Positions 1 to 10,884 of a stretch of DNA of 45,201 nt are shown here, piece after piece; position 1 is the first letter of the stretch; each line of letters begins with the position of its first letter. Position numbers and translations under genes: made by a program. Below the pieces are notes generated by a model. That model saw only the letters and a list, made by a program, of their open reading frames with translations. It had not been told where the DNA came from and ran no database searches. The stretch comes from Escherichia phage PC2: sequence record NC_073088, one strand, 5' to 3'.

Positions 1-2292
1 ATGAAAGACTTCGAACGCCTTTTTCTCGATACCGAGACATTTAGCGGGGTGGACCTGAAGAAAGTGGGCGCATACGCCTACGCAGAGCACCCAACAACCG
101 AGATTATGATTTGCACCTACGCCATCGACGAGGGCCGCGTGCAGACATGGGATTGCACCGAATCCCCCACAATGCCGCGTGAACTGCGCAAGGCGCTCCG
201 CCGGGTGTCCCGCAAGAAAGCAAAAATCGTGATGGCTAACGGCCTCCTGTTTGACCGCCTGGTTATTCGCGAGAAGTGGGGCATTGACCTGCCAGTGTGC
301 CAGATCGAAGATACCATGATTATGGCCTTTCGACACGCGTTGCCGGGTAGTCTCGATATGCAGTGCCAGGTGCTGGGCGTTGACGCAGACCACGCGAAGG
401 ATAAGGCGGGCAAGGCGCTGATCAAACGATTCTGTAAGCCAACCCCTAAGACCTACAAAATCCGCCGCTACACGCGCGAGACGCACCCCGAGGAGTGGGC
501 TAAATTCCTGCGCTATGCCGCGTTGGATATCATCGCTATGAGGGAAGTCTATTGGCGCATACCGGACTGGGGCAACACGCCGAAGGAAGATGAAATCCTG
601 CTTATTGACCAGATGATTAACGACCGCGGCTTCTATGTGGACGTTGACCTGGCTAACGCCGCGATCAAAGCGGTGCAGGCGCATAAGGAAGAATTGAAGG
701 AAGAAGCGTGGGAGCGCTTCGGCGGTAAGCTGACCGGCAATGACTTTCTGCCAGCGCTGCGCGACCTCGCGCCTGCGTTCACGATCCACAACGCGCAGAA
801 ATCCACACTTAACGACCTGCTGGAAGACCCAGACTTCCCCGACGAGGGAAAAGCGCTTATAGAAATGCGCCTCGGGGCATCATCAACGGCATCGACTAAG
901 TACAATCCGCTCGTAAACGGGCTGTCTTCCGATGGTCGCCGTCGTGGGTGTCTCCAGTATGGCGGGGCAAAACGCACGCTACGCTGGGCGGGCAAAGGCT
1001 TCCAACCGCAAAACCTGGCGCGCGGCGAGTATAGCGACGACCACGAAGGGAAGATTAAGCGCCGTGATGGCGAAAGCGACGTCTCGTTTTGGGTGCGGTC
1101 GCACATGCTTACCAACGGCATCAACTCCCTGTTACGCGGGACCGCACACTGGGCGTATGACATATCGAAGTTAACGGCCTCGACCGTTCGCGGGTGCATT
1201 ATTCCGGCTAAGGGCAAGAAGTTTGTCGTAGCGGACTATTCCAACGTGGAAGGCCGCGGGCTTGCATGGATCGCTGGCGAGAAAACCGCGCTAATGGTGT
1301 TTAATGCCGATCGAGATATCTATTGTGAAACTGCCGGTAAGATGTTTGGCCTCGACCCGGAATACATCAAAGCCAACCGCAAAGACTTACGCCAGATCGG
1401 TAAGGCGTGTGAATTGGGACTGGGTTATGGCGGCGGCGTGGCGGCGTTCTTGCAGTTCGCTAAAAACATGGGTCTAGACCTGTATGCGATGGCGGACGTC
1501 ATGAAGGGTACATTCCCCGATCATATTTGGGCCGCGGCGAAACGTGGTTATGAGTATGCCCGCATTAACGAAGCTAAGCGCCCGCCGAAGCCTGGCAAGA
1601 AAGACGAGCGCCCAACTTACATACTGCCGAAAAACGTATGGCTGACGTGTGATGCGATCAAACGTATGTGGCGCGAGTCGCACCCGAAGACGGTAGCATT
1701 TTGGGCTGAACTGGAAGACGCGGTGCTCTGCGCGATCCGCAATCCGGGCAAAGCGTACTGGGCTGGCGCGAACGTTCGCCCGGATGGCAAGAAAGCGCTC
1801 AAGATAGTCCGCACGAAGGCGAAGCACGACCCAACCTTCGACGAGGAGCGCGACGACCCGAACGCCGCGGGGTGGTGGTTGAAAATTGAGTTACCGTCGG
1901 GGCGCATCATGAGCTACCCCGGCATCGCGCTGTCTGTCACGACCGAGATCGACGAAGACACCGGCAAGAAGCGCACCAGCACCCGCATTAAATATCAGGG
2001 TGAGAATCAGACGACGCGCCAGTGGGGATTCCAGTACACCTACGGCGGCAAACTGACGGAAAACATCGTGCAGGCTCTGTGCCGCGATATCCTCGCATGG
2101 TCCATGCCGGGCGTTGAAGCCGCAGGGTATGAGATCGTACTGTCCGTACACGATGAACTGATAACCGAAGTGCCGGATACCGACGACTACACAACCGAGG
2201 AGTTGTGCGCGCTGATGTGCGACCTGCCGGTTTGGGCGAAAGGCTTCCCGCTTGCAGCGGAAGGCGACATTATGTACAGGTACAGGAAATAA
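1..2292 (+). CDS. Family A (Pol I / T7-like) DNA polymerase with N-terminal 3'-5' exonuclease domain
   Basis: 763-aa ORF; N-terminal exo motif LFLDTETFSG; polymerase-domain motifs resembling T7 gp5 (QIGKACELGLGYGGG, SVHDELITEV). ATG at position 1. Confidence 0.9.
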   Translation: MKDFERLFLDTETFSGVDLKKVGAYAYAEHPTTEIMICTYAIDEGRVQTWDCTESPTMPRELRKALRRVSRKKAKIVMANGLLFDRLVIREKWGIDLPVCQIEDTMIMAFRHALPGSLDMQCQVLGVDADHAKDKAGKALIKRFCKPTPKTYKIRRYTRETHPEEWAKFLRYAALDIIAMREVYWRIPDWGNTPKEDEILLIDQMINDRGFYVDVDLANAAIKAVQAHKEELKEEAWERFGGKLTGNDFLPALRDLAPAFTIHNAQKSTLNDLLEDPDFPDEGKALIEMRLGASSTASTKYNPLVNGLSSDGRRRGCLQYGGAKRTLRWAGKGFQPQNLARGEYSDDHEGKIKRRDGESDVSFWVRSHMLTNGINSLLRGTAHWAYDISKLTASTVRGCIIPAKGKKFVVADYSNVEGRGLAWIAGEKTALMVFNADRDIYCETAGKMFGLDPEYIKANRKDLRQIGKACELGLGYGGGVAAFLQFAKNMGLDLYAMADVMKGTFPDHIWAAAKRGYEYARINEAKRPPKPGKKDERPTYILPKNVWLTCDAIKRMWRESHPKTVAFWAELEDAVLCAIRNPGKAYWAGANVRPDGKKALKIVRTKAKHDPTFDEERDDPNAAGWWLKIELPSGRIMSYPGIALSVTTEIDEDTGKKRTSTRIKYQGENQTTRQWGFQYTYGGKLTENIVQALCRDILAWSMPGVEAAGYEIVLSVHDELITEVPDTDDYTTEELCALMCDLPVWAKGFPLAAEGDIMYRYRK

Positions 2293-2570
2293 TGACACCA
2301 GAAGGCAAGGTCCAAACTCACTTGATGAGACGGGTGAAAGAGGTTGGCGGATTCTGCCGTAAAGTGGCGTGGGAGGGGCGCGCAGGTGCGCCCGATCTGA
2401 TCATCATCATCAACGGCAAGATAGTTTTCGTCGAAGTGAAGCGCCCAGGCGGTAAACCTAAGCCGCACCAGGTACGAGAACATGAGCGAATGGCCCGCCG
2501 CGGTGCGGACGTTCGCGTTATCGACAGCATAGCCGACTGTGATTTATTGGTTGCTGAATTGGTCGCGTAG
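2292..2570 (+). CDS. VRR-NUC family nuclease (PD-(D/E)xK fold)
   Basis: 92 aa; motif GAPDLIIII...VFVEVKRPGGKP (D...E.K); start ATG overlaps polymerase stop (TAATG); AGGA upstream. Confidence 0.7.
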   Translation: MTPEGKVQTHLMRRVKEVGGFCRKVAWEGRAGAPDLIIIINGKIVFVEVKRPGGKPKPHQVREHERMARRGADVRVIDSIADCDLLVAELVA

Positions 2571-2579
2571 CGGTATAGT
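2551..2579 (+). promoter_or_regulatory. Candidate promoter (TTGCTG-N17-TATAGT) inside the 3' end of the VRR-NUC gene
   Basis: Hexamers read directly; preceded by TTGGTTGC as in other promoters here. Confidence 0.4.
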
Positions 2580-2610
2580 GTGCCGGTTAGCCATATCGAG
2601 GATTTTAGAG

Positions 2611-2784
2611 ATGATTGAAGAAAAACGTTGCAGTAATTGCGGCTGCGTTAAACCGCTATCCCAGTTCCATAAATACACCGGTAAGACTGCGCGAAGCCCG
2701 GACGGGTATCGGGCAGAGTGCAAATCGTGCCGCAATAAAAAAGAGCGCGAACGGCAGCGCCGCTACCGCGCAGCGCAAAAATAA
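2611..2784 (+). CDS. Small Cys4 zinc-ribbon protein
   Basis: 57 aa with CSNCGC...CKSCRNKK; RBS GAGGA 7 nt upstream of ATG; terminator follows. Confidence 0.45.
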   Translation: MIEEKRCSNCGCVKPLSQFHKYTGKTARSPDGYRAECKSCRNKKERERQRRYRAAQK

Positions 2785-2791
2785 TTAATAC

Positions 2792-2815
2792 GGCGGGCTT
2801 GTCCCGCCATTTTTG
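2792..2815 (+). terminator. Intrinsic terminator
   Basis: GGCGGG-CTTGT-CCCGCC followed by ATTTTTGG, right after the zinc-ribbon ORF stop. Confidence 0.7.
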
Positions 2816-2827
2816 GGAGACATGACG

Positions 2828-3046
2828 ATGAAAGAACATTACCGACTCACCAAGCTGGGCGAATGCAAACCAGGCGATCGCGTATGGTTTATTGCGGGCA
2901 TGAATGACCCGCTGCCGTTGACGGTATGCTGGCAAAAATTTAAGAGCTTCCGGGCGACGGGTGTGCACATCGGGCACCGCACCAACTACGACGCCACAAA
3001 AAGGAACTGGAACAGTGAAACCGAAGTCTGGAAAAAGGCGGAATAA
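2828..3046 (+). CDS. Hypothetical protein
   Basis: ORF after GGGAGA RBS; start chosen at ATG 2828 (the ORF track opens at TTG 2813). Confidence 0.35.
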   Translation: MKEHYRLTKLGECKPGDRVWFIAGMNDPLPLTVCWQKFKSFRATGVHIGHRTNYDATKRNWNSETEVWKKAE

Positions 3047-3050
3047 AGAT

Positions 3051-4475
3051 ATGGCACGTTTCCGACGTCGCGAATATCAGAAGTTGATAACCGCGTTCAT
3101 CCTCAAGCATAAGCGCTGCAATATTTGGGCGACAATGGGGTCGGGTAAAACCGGCGCGACCATGTGGGCGCTGAATAAAATGTTCCAGACCGGCATCCTG
3201 TCCAACCAGGAGGACCGCGTACTGGTGCTTGCCCCGCTGCGCGTCGCATCGGGCACATGGCCCCCGGAACAAGAAAAATGGCGCTTCCCCGCCCTGCTGG
3301 TAGTAGACGGCACCGGGTCAGAGAAGGACCGCATCGCTGCGCTTGAGAGCGACGCTAACGTGGTTTGTGTTAACTATGATGTGGTTGAGTGGCTTGTTGA
3401 GTATTGCGGCGACGAGTGGCCCTTTACGGTCGTTGTTGCCGATGAATCCACTAAGCTGAAAGGCTACCGCAGCAAGCAGGGGAGTAAGCGCGCCCGCGCC
3501 CTGGCGGCGATCGCACATAAGCGCGTCAAGCGCTGGATTAACCTTACCGGCACACCCGCACCAAACGGGCTGAAAGACCTATGGGGTCAGACGTGGTTTG
3601 TCGACGGTGGCGAACGCCTCGGCAGTAGCTATAAGGCATTCACGGATCGCTGGTTTATTAGCAAGCCTGTTAAGCCTGGCAGCTTCACTATGCAGCACGC
3701 CCCGCTAAAGAACTCCGAGAAGGAGATCCAACAACGCCTGTCTGACGTATCCCTTACCGTTGACGCGGCTGAATACTTCGGATGTGACAAGCCAATCTAT
3801 ACTCCGGTTGTTGTGGACCTGCCGAAGAAAGCCCGCAAGATTTATGACCAGTTCGAAGCGGAGCTATTTGCCGAACTGGAAAGCGGAACGGTGGAGGCGG
3901 CGAACGCTGCTTCGAAGACTATTAAGTGCCTTCAGCTTGCTTCCGGGGCCGTGTATAAAGTCGACGAAGACGGCGAGCGCACCGACGAATGGGTGAAAAT
4001 CCACGACGCTAAACTGGACGCGCTGGAAAGTATCGTGGAGGAGTTGAACGGCGCACCGCTGCTCGTCGCGTACCAGTACAAGCATGACCTGGCGCGTCTC
4101 AAGAAGAAATTCCCTCACGGCGTAGCGATGGGTAAGGGTAAGCAAGGCAATAAGGATATGGAAGCGTGGAACAGGGGCGAGATCCCCATCATGTTCGCGC
4201 ACCCGGCATCGGCGGGTCACGGCCTTAACTTGCAGGATGGCGGACACCACCTTGCCATCTTCTCAGACACCTGGAACTATGAGCATTTTTCGCAGATTGT
4301 GGAGCGTATCGGGCCGGTTCGCCAGATGCAAGCCGGACACCCTCGTCCGGTATTCGTCTACATTATCCAGGCGCGTGGCACACTGGATGAACTTGTCGCC
4401 GAGCGTCGCGACAGTAAGCGGGATATTCAGGACGACTTGATGGAATACATGAAAGCTAAAAAGGCACGCAAATGA
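3051..4475 (+). CDS. SF2 (SNF2/DEAD-like) DNA helicase
   Basis: Walker A GSGKTGAT, motif II VVVADESTKLK, C-terminal motif HPASAGHGLNLQ. Start set at MARFRRREYQ; an alternative GTG start at 2961 exists. Confidence 0.8.
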   Translation: MARFRRREYQKLITAFILKHKRCNIWATMGSGKTGATMWALNKMFQTGILSNQEDRVLVLAPLRVASGTWPPEQEKWRFPALLVVDGTGSEKDRIAALESDANVVCVNYDVVEWLVEYCGDEWPFTVVVADESTKLKGYRSKQGSKRARALAAIAHKRVKRWINLTGTPAPNGLKDLWGQTWFVDGGERLGSSYKAFTDRWFISKPVKPGSFTMQHAPLKNSEKEIQQRLSDVSLTVDAAEYFGCDKPIYTPVVVDLPKKARKIYDQFEAELFAELESGTVEAANAASKTIKCLQLASGAVYKVDEDGERTDEWVKIHDAKLDALESIVEELNGAPLLVAYQYKHDLARLKKKFPHGVAMGKGKQGNKDMEAWNRGEIPIMFAHPASAGHGLNLQDGGHHLAIFSDTWNYEHFSQIVERIGPVRQMQAGHPRPVFVYIIQARGTLDELVAERRDSKRDIQDDLMEYMKAKKARK

Positions 4476-5182
4476 CTATTGCTAAAATGACAATCTGGTC
4501 ATTATTTGACGGCAGCGGCTTGATGATTGAGCGTGCTGCCGAGATGGGGCATAAGTGCTATTGCTTCAACTACTCCGAAGCCGATCACGGGTCGTACCTG
4601 GACTACCGGATCTATGGGCGCGGTATCCGATATCGTAATGAGTTTATCGATCTGGACTTCGTAGACCGCGCGATGAATGGCGATTTCGGTACGCCGGATA
4701 TCATCTACGCATTCCCGCCGTGTACGGATCTGGCGGTTAGCGGTGCGCCAGCGTTCCCGCGCAAACGCTCCCGCGACCCTGCCTTCCAGCTTAAGGCGGT
4801 GCGCACCGCGAAGATCGCCGCTTACCTGGGTGATTTCTTCGAAGTGCCATATATGATTGAGAATCCGCGCAGCGTGCTATCAACTCAATGGCGTAAGCCG
4901 GACCACTCGTTTGACCCGTGGGAGTATGGCGGATATCTGCCGGAGGATGACGTGCACCCGTTATTCCCGGAATACATCAACGCCCGCGATTCATATCCGA
5001 AGTTGACCTGCTTATGGACCGGCAACGGCTTCCGTATGCCAGAGAAGAAACCTGTTTTCGTTGAAAAAGGGTACTCGAAGCAGTATAGTCGCCTCGGAGG
5101 CAAATCAGCCCGCACAAAATTAATCCGGTCGCTCACCCCGCGCGGCTTCGCGATAGCGGTTAACGAGGAAAATTTAAAATGA
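4472..5182 (+). CDS. DNA (cytosine-5)-methyltransferase-like protein, short, no obvious target-recognition domain
   Basis: 236 aa; motif I-like SLFDGSGL, motif IV-like AFPPCTDLAVSG (PCT in place of PCQ), motif VI-like MIENPRSVL (ENP in place of ENV). ATGA overlap with helicase stop. Confidence 0.55.
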   Translation: MTIAKMTIWSLFDGSGLMIERAAEMGHKCYCFNYSEADHGSYLDYRIYGRGIRYRNEFIDLDFVDRAMNGDFGTPDIIYAFPPCTDLAVSGAPAFPRKRSRDPAFQLKAVRTAKIAAYLGDFFEVPYMIENPRSVLSTQWRKPDHSFDPWEYGGYLPEDDVHPLFPEYINARDSYPKLTCLWTGNGFRMPEKKPVFVEKGYSKQYSRLGGKSARTKLIRSLTPRGFAIAVNEENLK

Positions 5183-5502
5183 ATACTGCATTCGACGCCA
5201 TCGACTTTTCAGTGGCAATGACCAATCAGCTTTTTTCCTACGACAGCAAGACCGGCGTCATTCGCCTGAAGTCAACCGGCTGCAAGATTGGCAACCTCAA
5301 TACTGCCGATGGCGGTACTCGTATCGAATGCAACGGCAAGACGCTGTCTGGCGCACGCGTGGCGTGGATTATCGCGACCGGCAATACAATCCCACCAGGC
5401 TTTGCCGTTGTGTGCCGTCAGCGCACGCCAGGCCATTACGGCAACCGGATCAGCAATCTCTATTTGGTTGACGTAGCGCGCGATCCTAACTTTTATGCGT
5501 AA
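5179..5502 (+). CDS. HNH_3/NUMOD-like homing-endonuclease-related protein, probably degenerate
   Basis: 107 aa; pattern ...GY..IECNGKTLSGARVAWIIATGNTIPPGF...NRISNLYLVD resembles the HNH_3 layout but lacks the usual His residues; ATGA overlap with upstream stop. Confidence 0.35.
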   Translation: MNTAFDAIDFSVAMTNQLFSYDSKTGVIRLKSTGCKIGNLNTADGGTRIECNGKTLSGARVAWIIATGNTIPPGFAVVCRQRTPGHYGNRISNLYLVDVARDPNFYA

Positions 5503-5507
5503 ATTGG

Positions 5508-5536
5508 TTGCATAATCATATTGGTTGCATTATATT
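5508..5536 (+). promoter_or_regulatory. Sigma70-type promoter (TTGCAT-N17-TATATT) with two TTGGTTGCAT copies
   Basis: Hexamers read directly; TTGGTTGCAT at 5504-5513 and 5521-5530. Confidence 0.55.
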
Positions 5537-5538
5537 TA

Positions 5539-5563
5539 GGGTGTCCGGTCGGACGCCCTTTTT
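5539..5563 (+). terminator. Terminator-like hairpin plus T5 tract overlapping the start of the 5508-5536 promoter transcript
   Basis: GGGTGTCCG..CGGACGCCC followed by TTTTTAAT, 20 nt before the RBS of ORF 5583. Confidence 0.5.
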
Positions 5564-5582
5564 AATACCTGGAGACAACACG

Positions 5583-6047
5583 ATGAAAATTTTACAAGAA
5601 GAGAAAAATTACTGGGCCGCGCAATGCCTCGAAGCCCGCGAACAGGCCGAACGTGCGAACGCGCTGGCGGATACCTACCTGTCAAGCTATGAAACGGAAG
5701 AAAAGCGTCGCATAGAGTTAGAGGAGCGCTTCGAACTGCTTTTCGAACTGATGGGGATTATGCAGCGCACCGGATACACCACCAGCGTTGCACTAAACCG
5801 CGTCACCGCCGAAGGTCTGCGCGAGCACTGTAAACGTGCGGAGGAGTACGTGCGACCGAAGGGTCGCCAGTCTAAGGTTGACCGGAAAGACCTTGTGCTT
5901 ATGGCGTGGCGCAACCCTACAAACGGCAGCTTCTACCCGGACGCGCGCCCGCTTAGTGCTGAGGAGTCAAAGCGCGTGCAACGCATTCTCAAAACCGGCA
6001 ATAAAATCGCCCTGTATGCGATAGACACCGACCATGCGGAAGAGTGA
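5583..6047 (+). CDS. Hypothetical protein (predicted coiled-coil N-terminus)
   Basis: 154 aa after RBS GGAGA (7-nt spacing); sits downstream of promoter 5508-5536. Confidence 0.5.
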   Translation: MKILQEEKNYWAAQCLEAREQAERANALADTYLSSYETEEKRRIELEERFELLFELMGIMQRTGYTTSVALNRVTAEGLREHCKRAEEYVRPKGRQSKVDRKDLVLMAWRNPTNGSFYPDARPLSAEESKRVQRILKTGNKIALYAIDTDHAEE

Positions 6048-6519
6048 GCAAAAAGATAGCTGGCGCACGCCGCCAGCTTTATTTAAACCGCTGCGCCGAA
6101 AGTACCGATTCCGTTATGACATGGCGGCGAGCGATGCCAACCACCTGCTACCGCGTTACTTCACGGCGGAGCACAGCGCGCTAGATGTGGACTGGTCAGA
6201 GTTGAAAGGGTGGAAGTGGTGCAACCCACCGTATTCCGATCCGCTGCCGTGGGTCGAGTGCGCAGCGCATGGACGTCGGACCGTCATGCTACTGAATCAG
6301 GATACGTCGACTAAGTGGGCGAAACTGGCCCGGAAGACTGCAAACCTGATAATTCTTCTGGACTGGCGTATCCGATTTATTCACGCTGTAACTGGTGAAG
6401 TCGGGCCTAGCAATAACAAGTGCCAGCAATTGATAATCTTCGACGAAGCGCTACCCTTCGGCGGCGCACAAATTGAAATAATGAGCGAAGGAGAACTCCT
6501 TGAATATCTTAATCGTTGA
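6034..6519 (+). CDS. Phage Dam-like DNA N6-adenine methyltransferase
   Basis: 161 aa; WRTPPALF...DMAASDANHL...WCNPPYSD (NPPY catalytic motif), typical of phage orphan Dam methylases. Confidence 0.75.
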   Translation: MRKSEQKDSWRTPPALFKPLRRKYRFRYDMAASDANHLLPRYFTAEHSALDVDWSELKGWKWCNPPYSDPLPWVECAAHGRRTVMLLNQDTSTKWAKLARKTANLIILLDWRIRFIHAVTGEVGPSNNKCQQLIIFDEALPFGGAQIEIMSEGELLEYLNR

Positions 6520-6724
6520 CCGCGACCCCGCGGTAGTAGACCAAATGCAAAAAGACTACGGTATTGACCCGCGACGCGATCGAGTGGTGCGCGCGTCTCG
6601 CCACGAATACATCATGGGCCTTGACCTCACCGGTTGGCTTGTCATGACTCAGCGTTGCCATTTCGTGTGCAACTCCTTTACTGCGCGAAGTGCCCGTTAC
6701 ACCCTTATTGAGAGTTTAAAATGA
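6500..6724 (+). CDS. Hypothetical small protein
   Basis: 74-aa ORF with non-ATG start after AAGGAG; start uncertain. Confidence 0.3.
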   Translation: MNILIVDRDPAVVDQMQKDYGIDPRRDRVVRASRHEYIMGLDLTGWLVMTQRCHFVCNSFTARSARYTLIESLK

Positions 6725-7191
6725 AATTATTGATTTGCGATTTGGATGGCGTTATTAACGGTTCAAGCGATGCGCGTGCCGACCTGGTACCTGGGATAAA
6801 AACTAAATCCACCTTTTGGGCGAAGTGGCACAAAGCGCACGTCCGCGAAGACCTGAACATGGATATGCTGCCGTTGTTGCGCATGTATAAAGAGCAAGGC
6901 TTCGAGATCGCGTATCTGACCAACCGGCAGCGTGAATGTTGGGACACCACCGCGGAGCAATTGAAGGTCTTCCCAGTAGGCCGGTTGTTTATGCGCCACA
7001 TGCTGGACGACACCCCGCCGCCTGAGTTTAAGGCGTGCGCCGTGTTCAAAATGGTCTGTTACGCGGACGTGTCTGAACTGGTCATCATTGAAGATTGCGA
7101 GAAGAACATCGCGGCAATTCGTCGGGTGTGTGGTGATTTGGTCCCGAAAATTTACGCAATAAACGTTGCAAAATTCACTTGCAACCAATAG
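6721..7191 (+). CDS. HAD-superfamily phosphatase-like protein (possible polynucleotide 3'-phosphatase or nucleotidase)
   Basis: N-terminal HAD motif I LICDLDGVI; ATGA overlap with upstream stop. Confidence 0.55.
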   Translation: MKLLICDLDGVINGSSDARADLVPGIKTKSTFWAKWHKAHVREDLNMDMLPLLRMYKEQGFEIAYLTNRQRECWDTTAEQLKVFPVGRLFMRHMLDDTPPPEFKACAVFKMVCYADVSELVIIEDCEKNIAAIRRVCGDLVPKIYAINVAKFTCNQ

Positions 7192-7208
7192 GTTGGTTGC
7201 ACTATAGT
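7179..7208 (+). promoter_or_regulatory. Sigma70-type promoter (TTGCAA-N18-TATAGT) containing a 9-bp-arm palindrome
   Basis: TGCAACCAA-TAGG-TTGGTTGCA at 7180-7201 lies in the spacer; overlaps the HAD gene stop. Confidence 0.5.
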
Positions 7209-7254
7209 AAACGTGTCGGGGGCAATACAGCCCCCTCACTAAAAGGGTAATACT

Positions 7255-7809
7255 GTGAAAGCATACGAATACTGCAAAAACGCCGCCACCACTATGGAAC
7301 AGCGCGGGAAAGAAAACGGCTATGACAACGCGAAAGAAGAACGCAGCGCTAAACAGGTCGCCGCCGTGTTTAACGCGCTTACCGGGCGCGACCTTACCGA
7401 GCAAGAAGCCTGGACCTTCCTGATCTGCCTGAAGCTGGTGCGCCAGCACCGTAAGCACCAGGAAGATAACATCGTGGATCTGGTGGCGTATGCCGCCCTG
7501 CTGGGCGAGTCTTACATGACAGTACATGACGAGATTCAGATCGATACAACGGCAGCACAATTCGACAGCCTCAAAGGTCTGTCCGTGCGCCTGGACGGCG
7601 AGATTAATGCGTATAACAGCGCAATTCGCGTTGCAGAGGACACGGTAGCCTCGTTCGGCAAGACGGTTAAGGCCCGCGATTTTGGAGTTGAAGCCCAGGA
7701 CGTCCAGCCTATGGTCGTGCTCACCGGCGAAGACGGATCGAAAATCTGCATGACGCAGGAAGATTTCCGTAACATGGAAAAAACACTGGTGACTGGCGCA
7801 CTTAAATAA
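7255..7809 (+). CDS. Hypothetical protein
   Basis: 184 aa; GTG start after promoter 7179-7208 and a GC hairpin. Confidence 0.45.
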   Translation: MKAYEYCKNAATTMEQRGKENGYDNAKEERSAKQVAAVFNALTGRDLTEQEAWTFLICLKLVRQHRKHQEDNIVDLVAYAALLGESYMTVHDEIQIDTTAAQFDSLKGLSVRLDGEINAYNSAIRVAEDTVASFGKTVKARDFGVEAQDVQPMVVLTGEDGSKICMTQEDFRNMEKTLVTGALK

Positions 7810-7850
7810 TTTAATCGCGGGCTTCAGCCCGCATCAATGAGGGATTCACA

Positions 7851-8426
7851 ATGTACGGCGAATATGAAATAACCGGTAAACAATTCCACCTGGCGGCAAT
7901 GATTGCAAGCATCGAGTTTGAACAGTGGCGCTTAAAGTCTGACGCGTGCAAGCAAAGCAGACTCGTCGGTGTGCTGGGCGAAATGTTTGCGGGCATGTAC
8001 CTCGAAGGGCAGGCGGGCGGTCGTAGCTGTATCCCACAAGGCTTGCTTATGCGTACCGGCCTGTTTAGCGCTAACACTATCGACCGCGGCGATATTATCA
8101 TGGTTGGCAAGCGCAAGGTTAAGTCCGGTCCTGATTTCCGCGAGCATACGATCGATGCCGTATGGACATACGAGGTTAAAGCCACCAGCGGCATCCGTCG
8201 CGGACTGGTAGAGGCCCGTTGCGCTCGCGAGTATCTGACCCGTCGCGTTGCCGGTGTTATCCTGGTGGGCGTAGATTTCGGACAACATAGCGCGCACGGT
8301 GTGATTGAGGATATAGCAGAGCCATACGTGATCGTGAACGACTGGCCTTTAGTGGAAGTTGACGGTAAGGAATACTACGAAAGCCCGCTGGTGCGGCGCA
8401 AAATGGATTGGGAAAACTCAAACTAA
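7851..8426 (+). CDS. Hypothetical protein (possible PD-(D/E)xK-like nuclease)
   Basis: 191 aa; RBS GAGGG; weak D...E.K pattern (GDIIMVGKRK...WTYEVKAT); followed by a bidirectional terminator. Confidence 0.45.
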   Translation: MYGEYEITGKQFHLAAMIASIEFEQWRLKSDACKQSRLVGVLGEMFAGMYLEGQAGGRSCIPQGLLMRTGLFSANTIDRGDIIMVGKRKVKSGPDFREHTIDAVWTYEVKATSGIRRGLVEARCAREYLTRRVAGVILVGVDFGQHSAHGVIEDIAEPYVIVNDWPLVEVDGKEYYESPLVRRKMDWENSN

Positions 8427-8457
8427 AAAAAAAAGGGGCCATAATGGCCCCTTCTCG
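8425..8457. terminator. Bidirectional intrinsic terminator between the convergent plus arm and the tail fibre gene
   Basis: GGGGCC-ATAAT-GGCCCC flanked by A10 on plus (T10 on minus). Confidence 0.8.
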
Positions 8458-10884
8458 TTATGCTTTAGACAGCGCCGCTACGGCAGCTTTCAATTCCTCC
8501 AGTTCACTACGCAACGACACCAGTTCTTCTTCCTGCTCTTTGCACACCTGCACTGCATAAGCGGCAATAGCGCCATAGTCGACCTGAAAGAAGCGCTGAC
8601 GACCCACCAGCTCCTCTCCGTCTTGCGTTGGCCCTGCGAGGTATTCGTGGTCCTCAAACGTGCTCACTGCTTCCGGCACAACGTCCATTACTTCCTGCGC
8701 AATAACCCCGGCGTAAGGCATACCGTCTTTTTTCAGGGTGTAGGTGTAACCGCCCATCTTAGCAAGGCCCGCGCGAGCGTTCTCGATCGGCTTGATGTTG
8801 TCCTTCAACTCGCGGTCCGATGACTGGTTTACCGTCGTGCAGTTTACCGTCCCGTTAACGCTCATCTGGCGCGTGCCGTTGCTGTTATACTGGGCGTAAA
8901 AAAGCCACCCCGGACCATCGTCAAGCCCAAACTCAATAACCGACGGGCGACCTGCCCCGTTACCCCACAATTTGAAGGTTGCTGGGTGTGACGAGTTGCC
9001 GTCGTTCTGCATTTTGAAATACTTGCCACTCGGACGGTTGATCTCTAAACTTGCGGCCTGAACGTATGCTTTACCCGCAAAATTCTTTGTACCAAGCACA
9101 ACGCCGTCCTTGATCAGCTCAACCTTACACGATGTAATATCGTTCAGGAATAAGGCGTTCGTCCCAGTGTCTTTCCCTAAAAACCAAAGACGTGTGCCTG
9201 CGGAGTTGTACCCTGTTACGTGCAGTGGTTGGTCGTTTGTTGACGCTGTTCCGTCGATACGAAATCCGCCATTAGCGGTTATAACTTTAATGCTGGGTAC
9301 GGTCATAGCAAATGTGCCGCTGGCTGCAAGCCCGTTATACGCGATCAGATTGTTGTCATACGCCAGTTCGCCGTTGTCACGAAGTTGAAAGTATTTATTA
9401 GATGCCGAGTTGTGAACAAATACATCTTTGGCGCCAGGTTTAATAGTTATGATCTTTCCGTCAACGGAAGCGCGCACCGCAGATCCAGTAATTACTCCAG
9501 AAAAAGTCGGCGACGACCCTGCGTTATACAACTCGTACCACTGCGACCATATTCCAGTAGCCGCGTTGTCTAGCCATCGAATCCAGCGCCGCCCGTTGCG
9601 GTATAATGTGTACGTCTGTACGCAACTCTTCGGGTCGTTAGCGCCAGTGCGCTGAACAAGTAGGCAACCTGCTTCCTGAAAGGGATAATTACGCTCCGGC
9701 GTTGCGTTGGCACTCAGGCCAGTATAATAAAATCCGGCCTTATCACCCTGAAGGTCGTTAAGGTCTTCGCTTACCAACGTTGCCCGGCGCTCGTGCATTG
9801 CCTGAAGATTGGCGCGCGCGCCCTGGTCGTTTGACGCACCTGTCCCACCGTCTCCGATCGCCACGTCCCCATTTGACCCCAGCTTCGCAAGCTCAATAGC
9901 GCTAACCCTTCCAGACGATCCGTTAATCGCGGCATTGTTTCCCGAGAAAACTTTAACGCGCGAGGTTTGCCAGTCAACGTTGATTGCAAAGAATGTATCC
10001 CCCGCGCCGCCACATACACCGGGTCCGTATCTGAAAGGGGTCATCTCACCGGCTTGGAACTGCGAAATATCATCAACGCGCCAAAAACCGCCTTTGACCG
10101 CATCGCGCAACCGCTTTAGCATATCCCTCACGCCAGTCGGAGCGTTTACGGTGACGCCCGCATACGGCACTTTCTGCGAGGCGTCCGCGCTGTTCGCAAA
10201 GCCTTCTGCCTCGTCGCGGAATCCTTTTGCCTGATCTTTAGCAGTTACGGCCTGCGACTTAGCAGTTACGGCCTGCGACTTAGCTGTCTCCGCGGCAGTC
10301 TTTGCGGACTCGGCTGCCGTCTTAGCTGTCTCGGCTTTGCCCTGTGCGGCCTCCGCCGCTGTTTTAGCTGTATTCGCGGTGTTCTTGAATCCTTCCGCCT
10401 CGTTACGGAAGCCTTGCGCCTGGTTTTTAGCCGTGATGGTCTGGTCTGCGATAGCCTGCAATTCAACCGGGTCTACATCTTTAAGCAGTTTAGACAGGTA
10501 GCCCCACGACATGCCCTGCACTACTTGACCGTTCGGCAGCGTGACCGAGATTTCCTCTTCTTCTCCGAAGATTGCGCGCCAGTTGTTCTCATCTGCGATC
10601 ATCAATCGCAGCGCTTTTTGCGCCTGGACGGTTACGCCCATCGTCGCCAGCGACATGGTATCGCGCTTAACGCCATCCCACGCAAGGCCGGTTGCCGTTG
10701 GGCCGTCGAACGGCAACACCAGCGTGAGCGCGGTTGCGCTTTCAATGGACGCGATCGCTACGGTGTAGGGGACTTGTCCTACCACCAGCGTTAAGAAGTC
10801 ACCAGCTTTAAACGCGGTAAACGTTGTGCCTACCCCTACAACCGCCTTGCTGTTATTCGTTACGGATAGAGTACCCGCTGCCAT
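8458..10884 (-). CDS. Tail fibre protein with C-terminal intramolecular-chaperone (endosialidase-chaperone-like) domain
   Basis: 808 aa; Ala/Lys/Thr heptad repeats in the shaft; C-terminus ...SSDRELKDNIKPIENA...GGYTYTLKK...GVIAQEV...; last gene of the tail operon; RBS GAGGA. Confidence 0.8.
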   Translation of the reverse strand: MAAGTLSVTNNSKAVVGVGTTFTAFKAGDFLTLVVGQVPYTVAIASIESATALTLVLPFDGPTATGLAWDGVKRDTMSLATMGVTVQAQKALRLMIADENNWRAIFGEEEEISVTLPNGQVVQGMSWGYLSKLLKDVDPVELQAIADQTITAKNQAQGFRNEAEGFKNTANTAKTAAEAAQGKAETAKTAAESAKTAAETAKSQAVTAKSQAVTAKDQAKGFRDEAEGFANSADASQKVPYAGVTVNAPTGVRDMLKRLRDAVKGGFWRVDDISQFQAGEMTPFRYGPGVCGGAGDTFFAINVDWQTSRVKVFSGNNAAINGSSGRVSAIELAKLGSNGDVAIGDGGTGASNDQGARANLQAMHERRATLVSEDLNDLQGDKAGFYYTGLSANATPERNYPFQEAGCLLVQRTGANDPKSCVQTYTLYRNGRRWIRWLDNAATGIWSQWYELYNAGSSPTFSGVITGSAVRASVDGKIITIKPGAKDVFVHNSASNKYFQLRDNGELAYDNNLIAYNGLAASGTFAMTVPSIKVITANGGFRIDGTASTNDQPLHVTGYNSAGTRLWFLGKDTGTNALFLNDITSCKVELIKDGVVLGTKNFAGKAYVQAASLEINRPSGKYFKMQNDGNSSHPATFKLWGNGAGRPSVIEFGLDDGPGWLFYAQYNSNGTRQMSVNGTVNCTTVNQSSDRELKDNIKPIENARAGLAKMGGYTYTLKKDGMPYAGVIAQEVMDVVPEAVSTFEDHEYLAGPTQDGEELVGRQRFFQVDYGAIAAYAVQVCKEQEEELVSLRSELEELKAAVAALSKA
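10240..10281. repeat. Perfect 21-bp tandem duplication inside the tail fibre gene
   Basis: AGCAGTTACGGCCTGCGACTT twice in tandem, encoding KSQAVTA twice; within a longer 21-nt periodic region (about 10225-10390). Confidence 0.8.

Follow-up and report, generated by a model that had tools for sequence, protein, structure and literature searches.

A conserved dam, ksap1 and HAD phosphatase gene trio in the Dhillonvirus Escherichia phage PC2

What does a Dam-like N6-adenine methylase gene do beside a HAD-type phosphatase gene in the genome of Escherichia phage PC2 (NC_073088), and does it, together with a cytosine methylase gene lying a little upstream, shield the phage against restriction? The stretch analyzed, referred to hereafter as the window, comprises 45,201 nucleotides (nt) and is the complete 45.2-kb genome of a Dhillonvirus (HK578-like E. 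coli siphovirus) that starts at the ATG of DNA polymerase I, as does the vB_EcoS-B2 record. A preliminary description of positions 6034-7191 had reported a methylase and a phosphatase, and had proposed that two methylases of different base specificity protect the phage against several restriction systems. Our analysis indicates that this interval holds three genes instead of two, and that dam, ksap1 and the HAD gene are a conserved accessory trio in the replication-side block of Dhillonvirus. We consider it likely that the trio comprises an orphan Dam of GATC type, the immune trigger Ksap1, and a HAD phosphatase of 3'-phosphate type, and that anti-restriction by the methylases would be absent or narrow only.

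Conservation of the trio and identity of its middle gene

The assignments to protein families, the catalytic residues and fold, the synteny, the signs of purifying selection, and the absence of the HAD gene from one isolate are results of this work; the dispensability of the methylase in phage SECphi18 was taken from the literature. The dam gene (6034-6519, + strand, 161 amino acids [aa]), ksap1 (6500-6724, + strand, 74 aa), and the HAD gene (6721-7191, + strand, 156 aa) are situated in a 4.1-kb block that matched 156 GenBank phage records at 80-95% nucleotide identity, with at least 80% of the query covered in 148 of them and the best match, at 95%, to vB_EcoS_SD276. The Dhillonviruses HK578, JL1, YD-2008.s, vB_EcoS-B2, SECphi18, and BASEL Bas14-18 bear an identical gene set in the same order, from which the window differs allelically only; the BASEL records label the products as "Dam-like N6-adenine methyltransferase", "putative phosphatase", and "Dcm-like C5 cytosine methyltransferase". 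These are conserved, ordinary accessory genes already annotated in more than 150 sequenced Dhillonviruses. As a discovery the locus carries little weight; its useful points are corrective, and an immune-trigger function has been published for its middle gene.

Four genes of the block were chained by overlaps: the stop of the gene encoding a 154-aa protein overlapped the dam start by 14 nt, dam overlapped ksap1 by 20 nt, and ksap1 overlapped the HAD gene by 4 nt (ATGA). This chaining suggests that the trio is translationally coupled, together with the 154-aa gene preceding it. The order SNF2 helicase, C5-like protein, HNH protein, ~150-aa protein, Dam, ~76-aa protein, HAD protein, DUF6378 protein, and ~192-aa protein was kept in metagenomic contigs whose HAD protein was just 42-50% identical to that of the window, as were both overlaps of the middle gene. 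The 76-aa proteins at the ksap1 position in these relatives showed 28-32% identity to the window protein, with a GxDxxGWLVxT core common to both. Within the BASEL set, KarlBarth (Bas17) retained dam and ksap1 and was devoid of the HAD, DUF6378, and 191-aa protein genes, with minus-strand tail-fibre genes situated directly after ksap1; its locus at 1425-2622, set against 6721-8426 of the window, represents a natural deletion or replacement of the block.

Among ten Dhillonviruses, the ratio of nonsynonymous to synonymous substitution rates (dN/dS) was ~0.06 for dam, with 96% mean protein identity, which marks it as a maintained, functional gene, and 0.08 for the HAD gene, with 93% identity. For ksap1, dN/dS reached ~0.22, with dS near saturation, and at 0.69 its mean protein identity fell well below the values for Dam (0.96) and the HAD protein (0.93). 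The tblastn identity bands agreed with these values, Ksap1 being far more diverged within the genus than its neighbours.

The gene at 6500-6724, which the preliminary description had missed, is by homology and position ksap1, encoding KpAvs2-stimulating protein 1. It starts with a TTG behind the Shine-Dalgarno sequence GAAGGAG, and its product was matched over its full length by PHROG 10685 (3.5e-43) and was 85% identical over 74 aa to the SECphi18 protein at the syntenic site. In the Dhillonvirus SECphi18, Ksap1 has 74 aa and is encoded between the methyltransferase and phosphatase genes, and the Klebsiella Avs2 defence protein KpAvs2, a bacterial sensor, binds it directly and becomes activated (Bechon et al. 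2024, PMC11564622). The window protein would thus be the one that KpAvs2 binds in order to fire. It carries L47 and T50, the residues changed in SECphi18 mutants escaping KpAvs2 (PMC11564622), and at positions 30, 39, and 60 it bears V, M, and F, as does Bas14, whereas the sensed SECphi18 bears K, L, and F, and the unsensed SECphi6 bears V, M, and V. The triple change K30V/L39M/F60V in SECphi18 Ksap1 abolished KpAvs2 activation, and KpAvs2 does defend against Bas14 (PMC11564622). Since the window shares its V/M/F combination with Bas14, the phage is probably sensed by KpAvs2. In one GenBank record a minus-strand open reading frame (ORF), probably spurious, is annotated in the place of ksap1.

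The two methylases and the restriction question

The Dam-like N6-adenine methylase with an NPPY motif was borne out by the family searches, and the ends given for its gene were exact. Its product matched PF05869 (Dam) at E=2.2e-35 over residues 3-138, with 122.3 bits against a gathering threshold of 28.1, as well as PHROG 111 at 1.6e-54 and the PADLOC "orphan methyltransferase" model at 6e-11. When aligned with the T1, Bas06, and Stx-phage enzymes and two metagenomic homologues, the segments D29-M-A-A-S (29-33) and N64-P-P-Y-S (64-68) were invariant; the latter contains the NPPY catalytic motif IV (residues 64-67, at 6223-6234, + strand), while D-x-A-A-S presumably corresponds to the segment binding S-adenosylmethionine (AdoMet or SAM). 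The other members of the phage Dam family (T1, Stx-phage nin-region, HP1/HP2) also belong to PF05869, bear the same motifs, and are likewise solitary enzymes lacking a partner nuclease. The T1 and Bas06 enzymes have a ~50-residue N-terminal extension and an internal insertion, both of which are missing from the shorter window protein. A PDB single-sequence search with the methylase detected no solved structure. The Dam of phage slur05 has 169 aa with an extended C-terminus (locus 735-1244). Two groups of candidate relatives were rejected: Hia5, Hin1523, and Nma1821 are 281-aa EcoDam/DpnM-like enzymes (PMC3299994), and the methylase type with relaxed specificity that is known from Serratia phage OS31 and from phiP27 (PMC7556043) is unrelated, as BLASTP of the window protein against the phiP27 enzyme NP_543076 gave an E-value of 0.49.

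Regarding its target, the names of the relatives and the older literature on them indicate that the methylase most probably recognizes GATC. The T1, VT-2, and HP1 Dam enzymes are GATC-specific. VT-2 and HP1 Dam have also been cited as Dam-like proteins (PMC7556043). As a small SAM-dependent Dam, the enzyme would flip the target adenine into the NPPY pocket and methylate it by the general amino-methyltransferase mechanism, and it would probably maintain full methylation of a host-like site in phage DNA during its fast replication. Several points weigh against this assignment. The score against the TIGR01712 equivalog (phage_N6A_met) was 85.7 bits, below the cut-off of 97.05, so the protein was filed under the Pfam family and not as an equivalog. 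Identity to the relatives taken as GATC-specific was low: the closest ones bearing a functional name, the Stx-phage nin-region Dam and T1 Dam, were 37% and 31% identical, respectively, and the specificity of the named relatives comes from older literature. Literature searches yielded no methylome, restriction-digest, or enzyme data for any Dhillonvirus methylase. In addition, GATC and CCWGG specificities would duplicate what a Dam+ Dcm+ E. coli K-12 host already provides.

The C5-methyltransferase-like gene reported upstream (4472-5182, + strand, 236 aa) plausibly encodes a compact Dcm-like C5 cytosine methyltransferase. By itself the protein showed no Pfam match, PF00145 included, and neither a PDB single-sequence search nor a family-profile search yielded a structure for it. 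Sixteen of its 26 homologues matched PF00145, weakly, and F12-x-G-S-G, P-P-C84, E130-N-P, and RSLTPRG were invariant in the family. It shared 54% identity (E=3e-86) with the KarlJaspers (Bas06) Dcm-like protein, which is equally long (711 bp, 236 aa) and whose relative in phage K42 has been validated. The K42 genome is 95.4% identical to that of Bas06, and its 711-bp dcm, in which residues C82, E128, K175, and K176 were mutated, is the trigger of retron Ec86/Eco1; the product gave 5-methylcytosine in the multicopy single-stranded DNA (msDNA) of retron Ec86, and the CCWGG site of the msDNA was needed for sensing. C84, E130, and K177 of the window protein align with C82, E128, and K175/176 of the K42/KarlJaspers Dcm, that is, with the catalytic Cys, the catalytic Glu, and one of the two Lys residues. 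K42 and KarlJaspers are Drexlerviridae, whereas the window is a Dhillonvirus. Homology thus supports two methylases of different base specificity, in which the Dcm-like enzyme would pair with Dam and probably cover CCWGG. Such enzymes can also be liabilities for a phage, as the triggering of retron Ec86 by a Dcm homologue illustrates. The compact C5-like family was very large in phages (2871 matches) and mostly escaped PF00145; the version annotated in the Bas14 record is shorter, at 192 aa.

The proposal that these enzymes protect against several restriction systems found no support. In the BASEL study, Dhillonviruses carrying these genes were comparatively sensitive to type I and type II restriction-modification (RM), and methylase genes showed no simple link with RM resistance in related Drexlerviridae. 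The genome avoids sites instead: 15 of the 64 six-bp palindromes were absent from the window (1-45201), among them AAGCTT, GGATCC, CCATGG, GCCGGC, and GGGCCC, while third-order Markov simulations of the whole window gave 2.4 +/- 1.0 (maximum 5), and palindromic hexamers totalled 501 against 793 +/- 28 expected. No EcoKI site (AACN6GTGC) was present in the window. GATC and CCWGG were not avoided (observed/expected 0.85 and 0.91, respectively), which fits methylation cover of both sites, whether host-derived or phage-made. The nearest relatives named "dam" and the K42 Dcm point to host-like GATC and CCWGG specificities. Protection of this kind would be narrow and, for Dam, would be directed at GATC cutters that are sensitive to methylation. 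The two enzymes probably duplicate the specificities of the host's own Dam and Dcm; they occur alongside strong site avoidance and measured RM sensitivity, and are not to be taken for a broad shield against restriction.

The broad protection envisaged in the preliminary description would call for a Dam-like enzyme with non-GATC or relaxed specificity that defends the DNA from adenine-sensitive restriction enzymes. We regard such an enzyme as unlikely, although the named Dam relatives are just 31-37% identical, the TIGR01712 score falls under its cut-off, and relaxed-specificity phage adenine methylases do exist. The known relaxed enzymes belong to other families (Hia5/Hin1523 and the phiP27/OS31 type, E=0.49), the BASEL Dhillonviruses are sensitive as described above, and the avoided palindromes include adenine-containing ones (AAGCTT, ATGCAT, GAGCTC, GGATCC), an avoidance that would be needless if adenines were broadly methylated.

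A separate observation concerns asymmetric sites. For six asymmetric hexamers, one orientation had 15 or more copies and the opposite one none, while 0.02 such pairs were expected from the simulations: CTGCTG/CAGCAG (21/0, the EcoP15I site), GAACTC (20/0), CGACAG (18/0), TAGCTG (18/0), CAACAG (16/0), and GACATG (15/0). Five of the six were found in both + and - gene regions, and CAACAG was absent from the first + block. This pattern looks like evasion of type III restriction by a single site orientation, as is the case for T7.

The statement that the methylase has no restriction partner is probably right, but it overlooked a gene at 7851-8426 (+ strand), three genes downstream of dam, which encodes a 191-aa protein with a PD-(D/E)xK (restriction-endonuclease-like) fold. 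A phage-borne RM pair composed of this protein and Dam, serving for example to degrade host DNA, seems very improbable to us. The fold with its invariant E44, D81/D102, and E108-x-K110, the location of the gene on the same strand and in the same block as dam, and a "restriction endonuclease" label in one GenBank record speak for it. Nevertheless, the fold match was weak, with a homing endonuclease and resolvases as top matches; a PDB single-sequence search with the 191-aa protein returned no meaningful match, and the restriction-enzyme models of Pfam and PADLOC matched none of the neighbouring genes. Bas17 keeps dam in the absence of the PD-(D/E)xK gene, and SECphi18 escapers with a partly deleted methylase gene are viable (PMC11564622). 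Taken together, the weak fold match, the loss of the gene where dam is kept, and the tolerance of partial dam loss make a cognate restriction pair unlikely, and the methylase is probably an orphan without a cognate nuclease.

The HAD phosphatase and the possible unity of the trio

The reported HAD-type phosphatase was likewise recovered. The DLDGV sequence is HAD motif I (residues 7-11, at 6739-6753, + strand), with the nucleophile Asp7 and the acid/base Asp9, and the protein matched PHROG 415 at 6.7e-36. An exhaustive search retrieved 41 representatives, which places the protein in a small clade; a word-indexed search gave only 16. In an alignment of 33 sequences, D7, D9, W33, R69, and D125 were invariant, and R19, P24, T77, R92, and K104 nearly so, from which it follows that all four HAD motifs are present. 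The AlphaFold model (pLDDT 95.6, pTM 0.90) showed the Rossmannoid fold, which, along with the motifs, assigns the protein to the HAD superfamily. Among the 33 homologues, 31 matched PF03767 (E<=0.01) and 26 matched PF25109 (HAD_PNKP), the best at 1.1e-24, so that membership of the window protein in PF25109 would hold by transitivity only. A PDB single-sequence search gave no meaningful match, and structures were found by the family profile only, namely a Bacillus anthracis class C acid phosphatase (1.5e-11), Pnkp1 (3.3e-11), and the T4 Pnkp phosphatase domain (5e-7). The viral proteins nearest in fold were labelled "PNKP phosphatase" and came from T1-like and other phages, either free-standing or fused to a kinase; distant free-standing counterparts, 22-27% identical, occur in T1 and Bas06. 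The ORF of phage Gluttony encodes 171 aa (locus 1422-1937).

These results describe a stand-alone phosphatase of PNKP-phosphatase/HAD-IIIB type. The 156 aa are all HAD domain, and no P-loop 5'-kinase domain of the T4 Pnkp type is fused to it, which makes the "polynucleotide kinase" label of PHROG and GenBank a misnomer. In contrast to the systems of T4 Pnkp and Capnocytophaga Pnkp1, the window protein lacks a kinase domain, and the window phage encodes no RNA ligase. It would act as a Mg2+-dependent phosphomonoesterase of DxDxT type, in which Asp7 forms the aspartyl-phosphate, Asp9 serves as acid/base, and Thr67/Arg69, Lys104, and Glu124-Asp125 complete the active site. We infer the GATC target, the substrate of this phosphatase, and the physiological roles of the trio; for the phosphatase, the most likely activity would be 3'-dephosphorylation of nucleic-acid ends or of 3'(5')-nucleotides. 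The roles suggested in the preliminary description, nucleotide salvage or the reversal of host damage to DNA ends, are plausible.

The family comparisons divide over this substrate. The protein matched the T4 Pnkp/Pnkp1 domains and the class B/C acid phosphatases about equally; better hidden Markov model scores go to HAD_PNKP, while a longer Trp-containing insert between HAD motifs I and II points to the acid phosphatases, aligning with those of class C and not with T4 Pnkp/Pnkp1. It could accordingly be a soluble (deoxy)nucleotidase of class B/C type, engaged in pool reshaping or in the salvage of 3'/5'-nucleoside monophosphates and not acting on polynucleotide ends, a possibility that we hold to be real but the lesser one. 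The matched PDB chains of the class B/C acid phosphatases and plant vegetative storage protein (HAD subfamily IIIB) are ~100 residues longer than the window protein, and class B/C acid phosphatases are secreted enzymes or lipoproteins. Nucleic-acid 3'-ends or 3'-nucleotides are weakly favoured as the substrate. Counting against a 3'-end phosphatase, the window protein itself missed the PF03767 gathering threshold (24.7 versus 27 bits) and did not match PF25109 at E<=0.1, and the best PDB profile match, the class C acid phosphatase, is a nucleotidase. The model as a whole is further weakened because the methylase gene and the HAD gene can each be lost without killing the phage, their benefit being conditional.

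Whether the three genes act as one unit was considered as well. In such a module, serving for example in counter-defence, a receiver-domain-like Ksap1 would act as partner or regulator of either flanking enzyme. In favour of this arrangement, the aspartyl-phosphate chemistry of HAD enzymes is that of receiver domains, and the order and both overlaps persist down to 42-50% identity of the HAD protein and 28-32% of Ksap1. Additionally, Ksap1 has been found to resemble a receiver domain without the phospho-acceptor Asp (PMC11564622). On the other hand, Bas17 holds dam and ksap1 in the absence of the HAD gene, SECphi18 tolerates deletions of ksap1 and dam with no defect reported (PMC11564622), Ksap1 evolves much faster than its neighbours, and overlapping genes are common in compact phage genomes. 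We therefore give the module only a small chance. The same low weight applies to the trio as a single device, whose job might be to repair the ends that host defence nucleases leave with a 3'-phosphate or cyclic phosphate, or to blunt immunity otherwise; if true, this would account for the evolution of an Avs2 sensor that watches Ksap1. A conserved accessory trio of GATC-type orphan Dam, Ksap1, and 3'-phosphate-type HAD phosphatase is the model that we prefer.

Neighbouring genes and minor features

Among the genes flanking the trio, the one at 5583-6047 (+ strand) encodes the 154-aa protein, which matched PHROG 10530. It carries the label "DNA ligase" in RefSeq and PHROG 10530, which we rejected as no Pfam, NCBIfam, or PADLOC match was obtained, and some records' own note on the protein reads "Possible DNA ligase but no evidence". 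This is likely an annotation error that has spread between records. Along with "polynucleotide kinase" and "restriction endonuclease", "DNA ligase" is one of three labels for this block that are unsupported or over-stated in public records. Further upstream, the gene at 5179-5502 (+ strand) encodes a 107-aa HNH/homing-endonuclease-like protein, as indicated by PHROG 99 at 4e-16 and by the labels in relatives. A terminator-like hairpin on the + strand (5538-5559) is located between these two genes, just upstream of the overlapping chain.

Downstream of the HAD gene, a 184-aa DUF6378 protein is encoded at 7255-7809 (+ strand; PF19905 at 1.5e-9). Its gene was syntenic in divergent relatives and always accompanied the HAD gene there. 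The protein matched PHROGs labelled "phosphofructokinase", a label that looks unfounded, and a PDB single-sequence search with it gave no meaningful match. An antisense ORF of 265 codons (6763-7560, - strand) overlaps the HAD and DUF6378 genes and is probably spurious. The promoter scan was uninformative (6 sites versus 6.4 expected), and scanning the entire window for Rfam families and tRNAs gave no match. A second terminator-like hairpin, with a 12-bp stem followed by a T-run, lies at 8430-8456 (- strand; consensus match only), where the + block meets a convergent tail-fibre gene on the - strand. Terminator-like sites were enriched in positions 1-9000 of the window, with 20 found against 10.4 +/- 3.4 expected.

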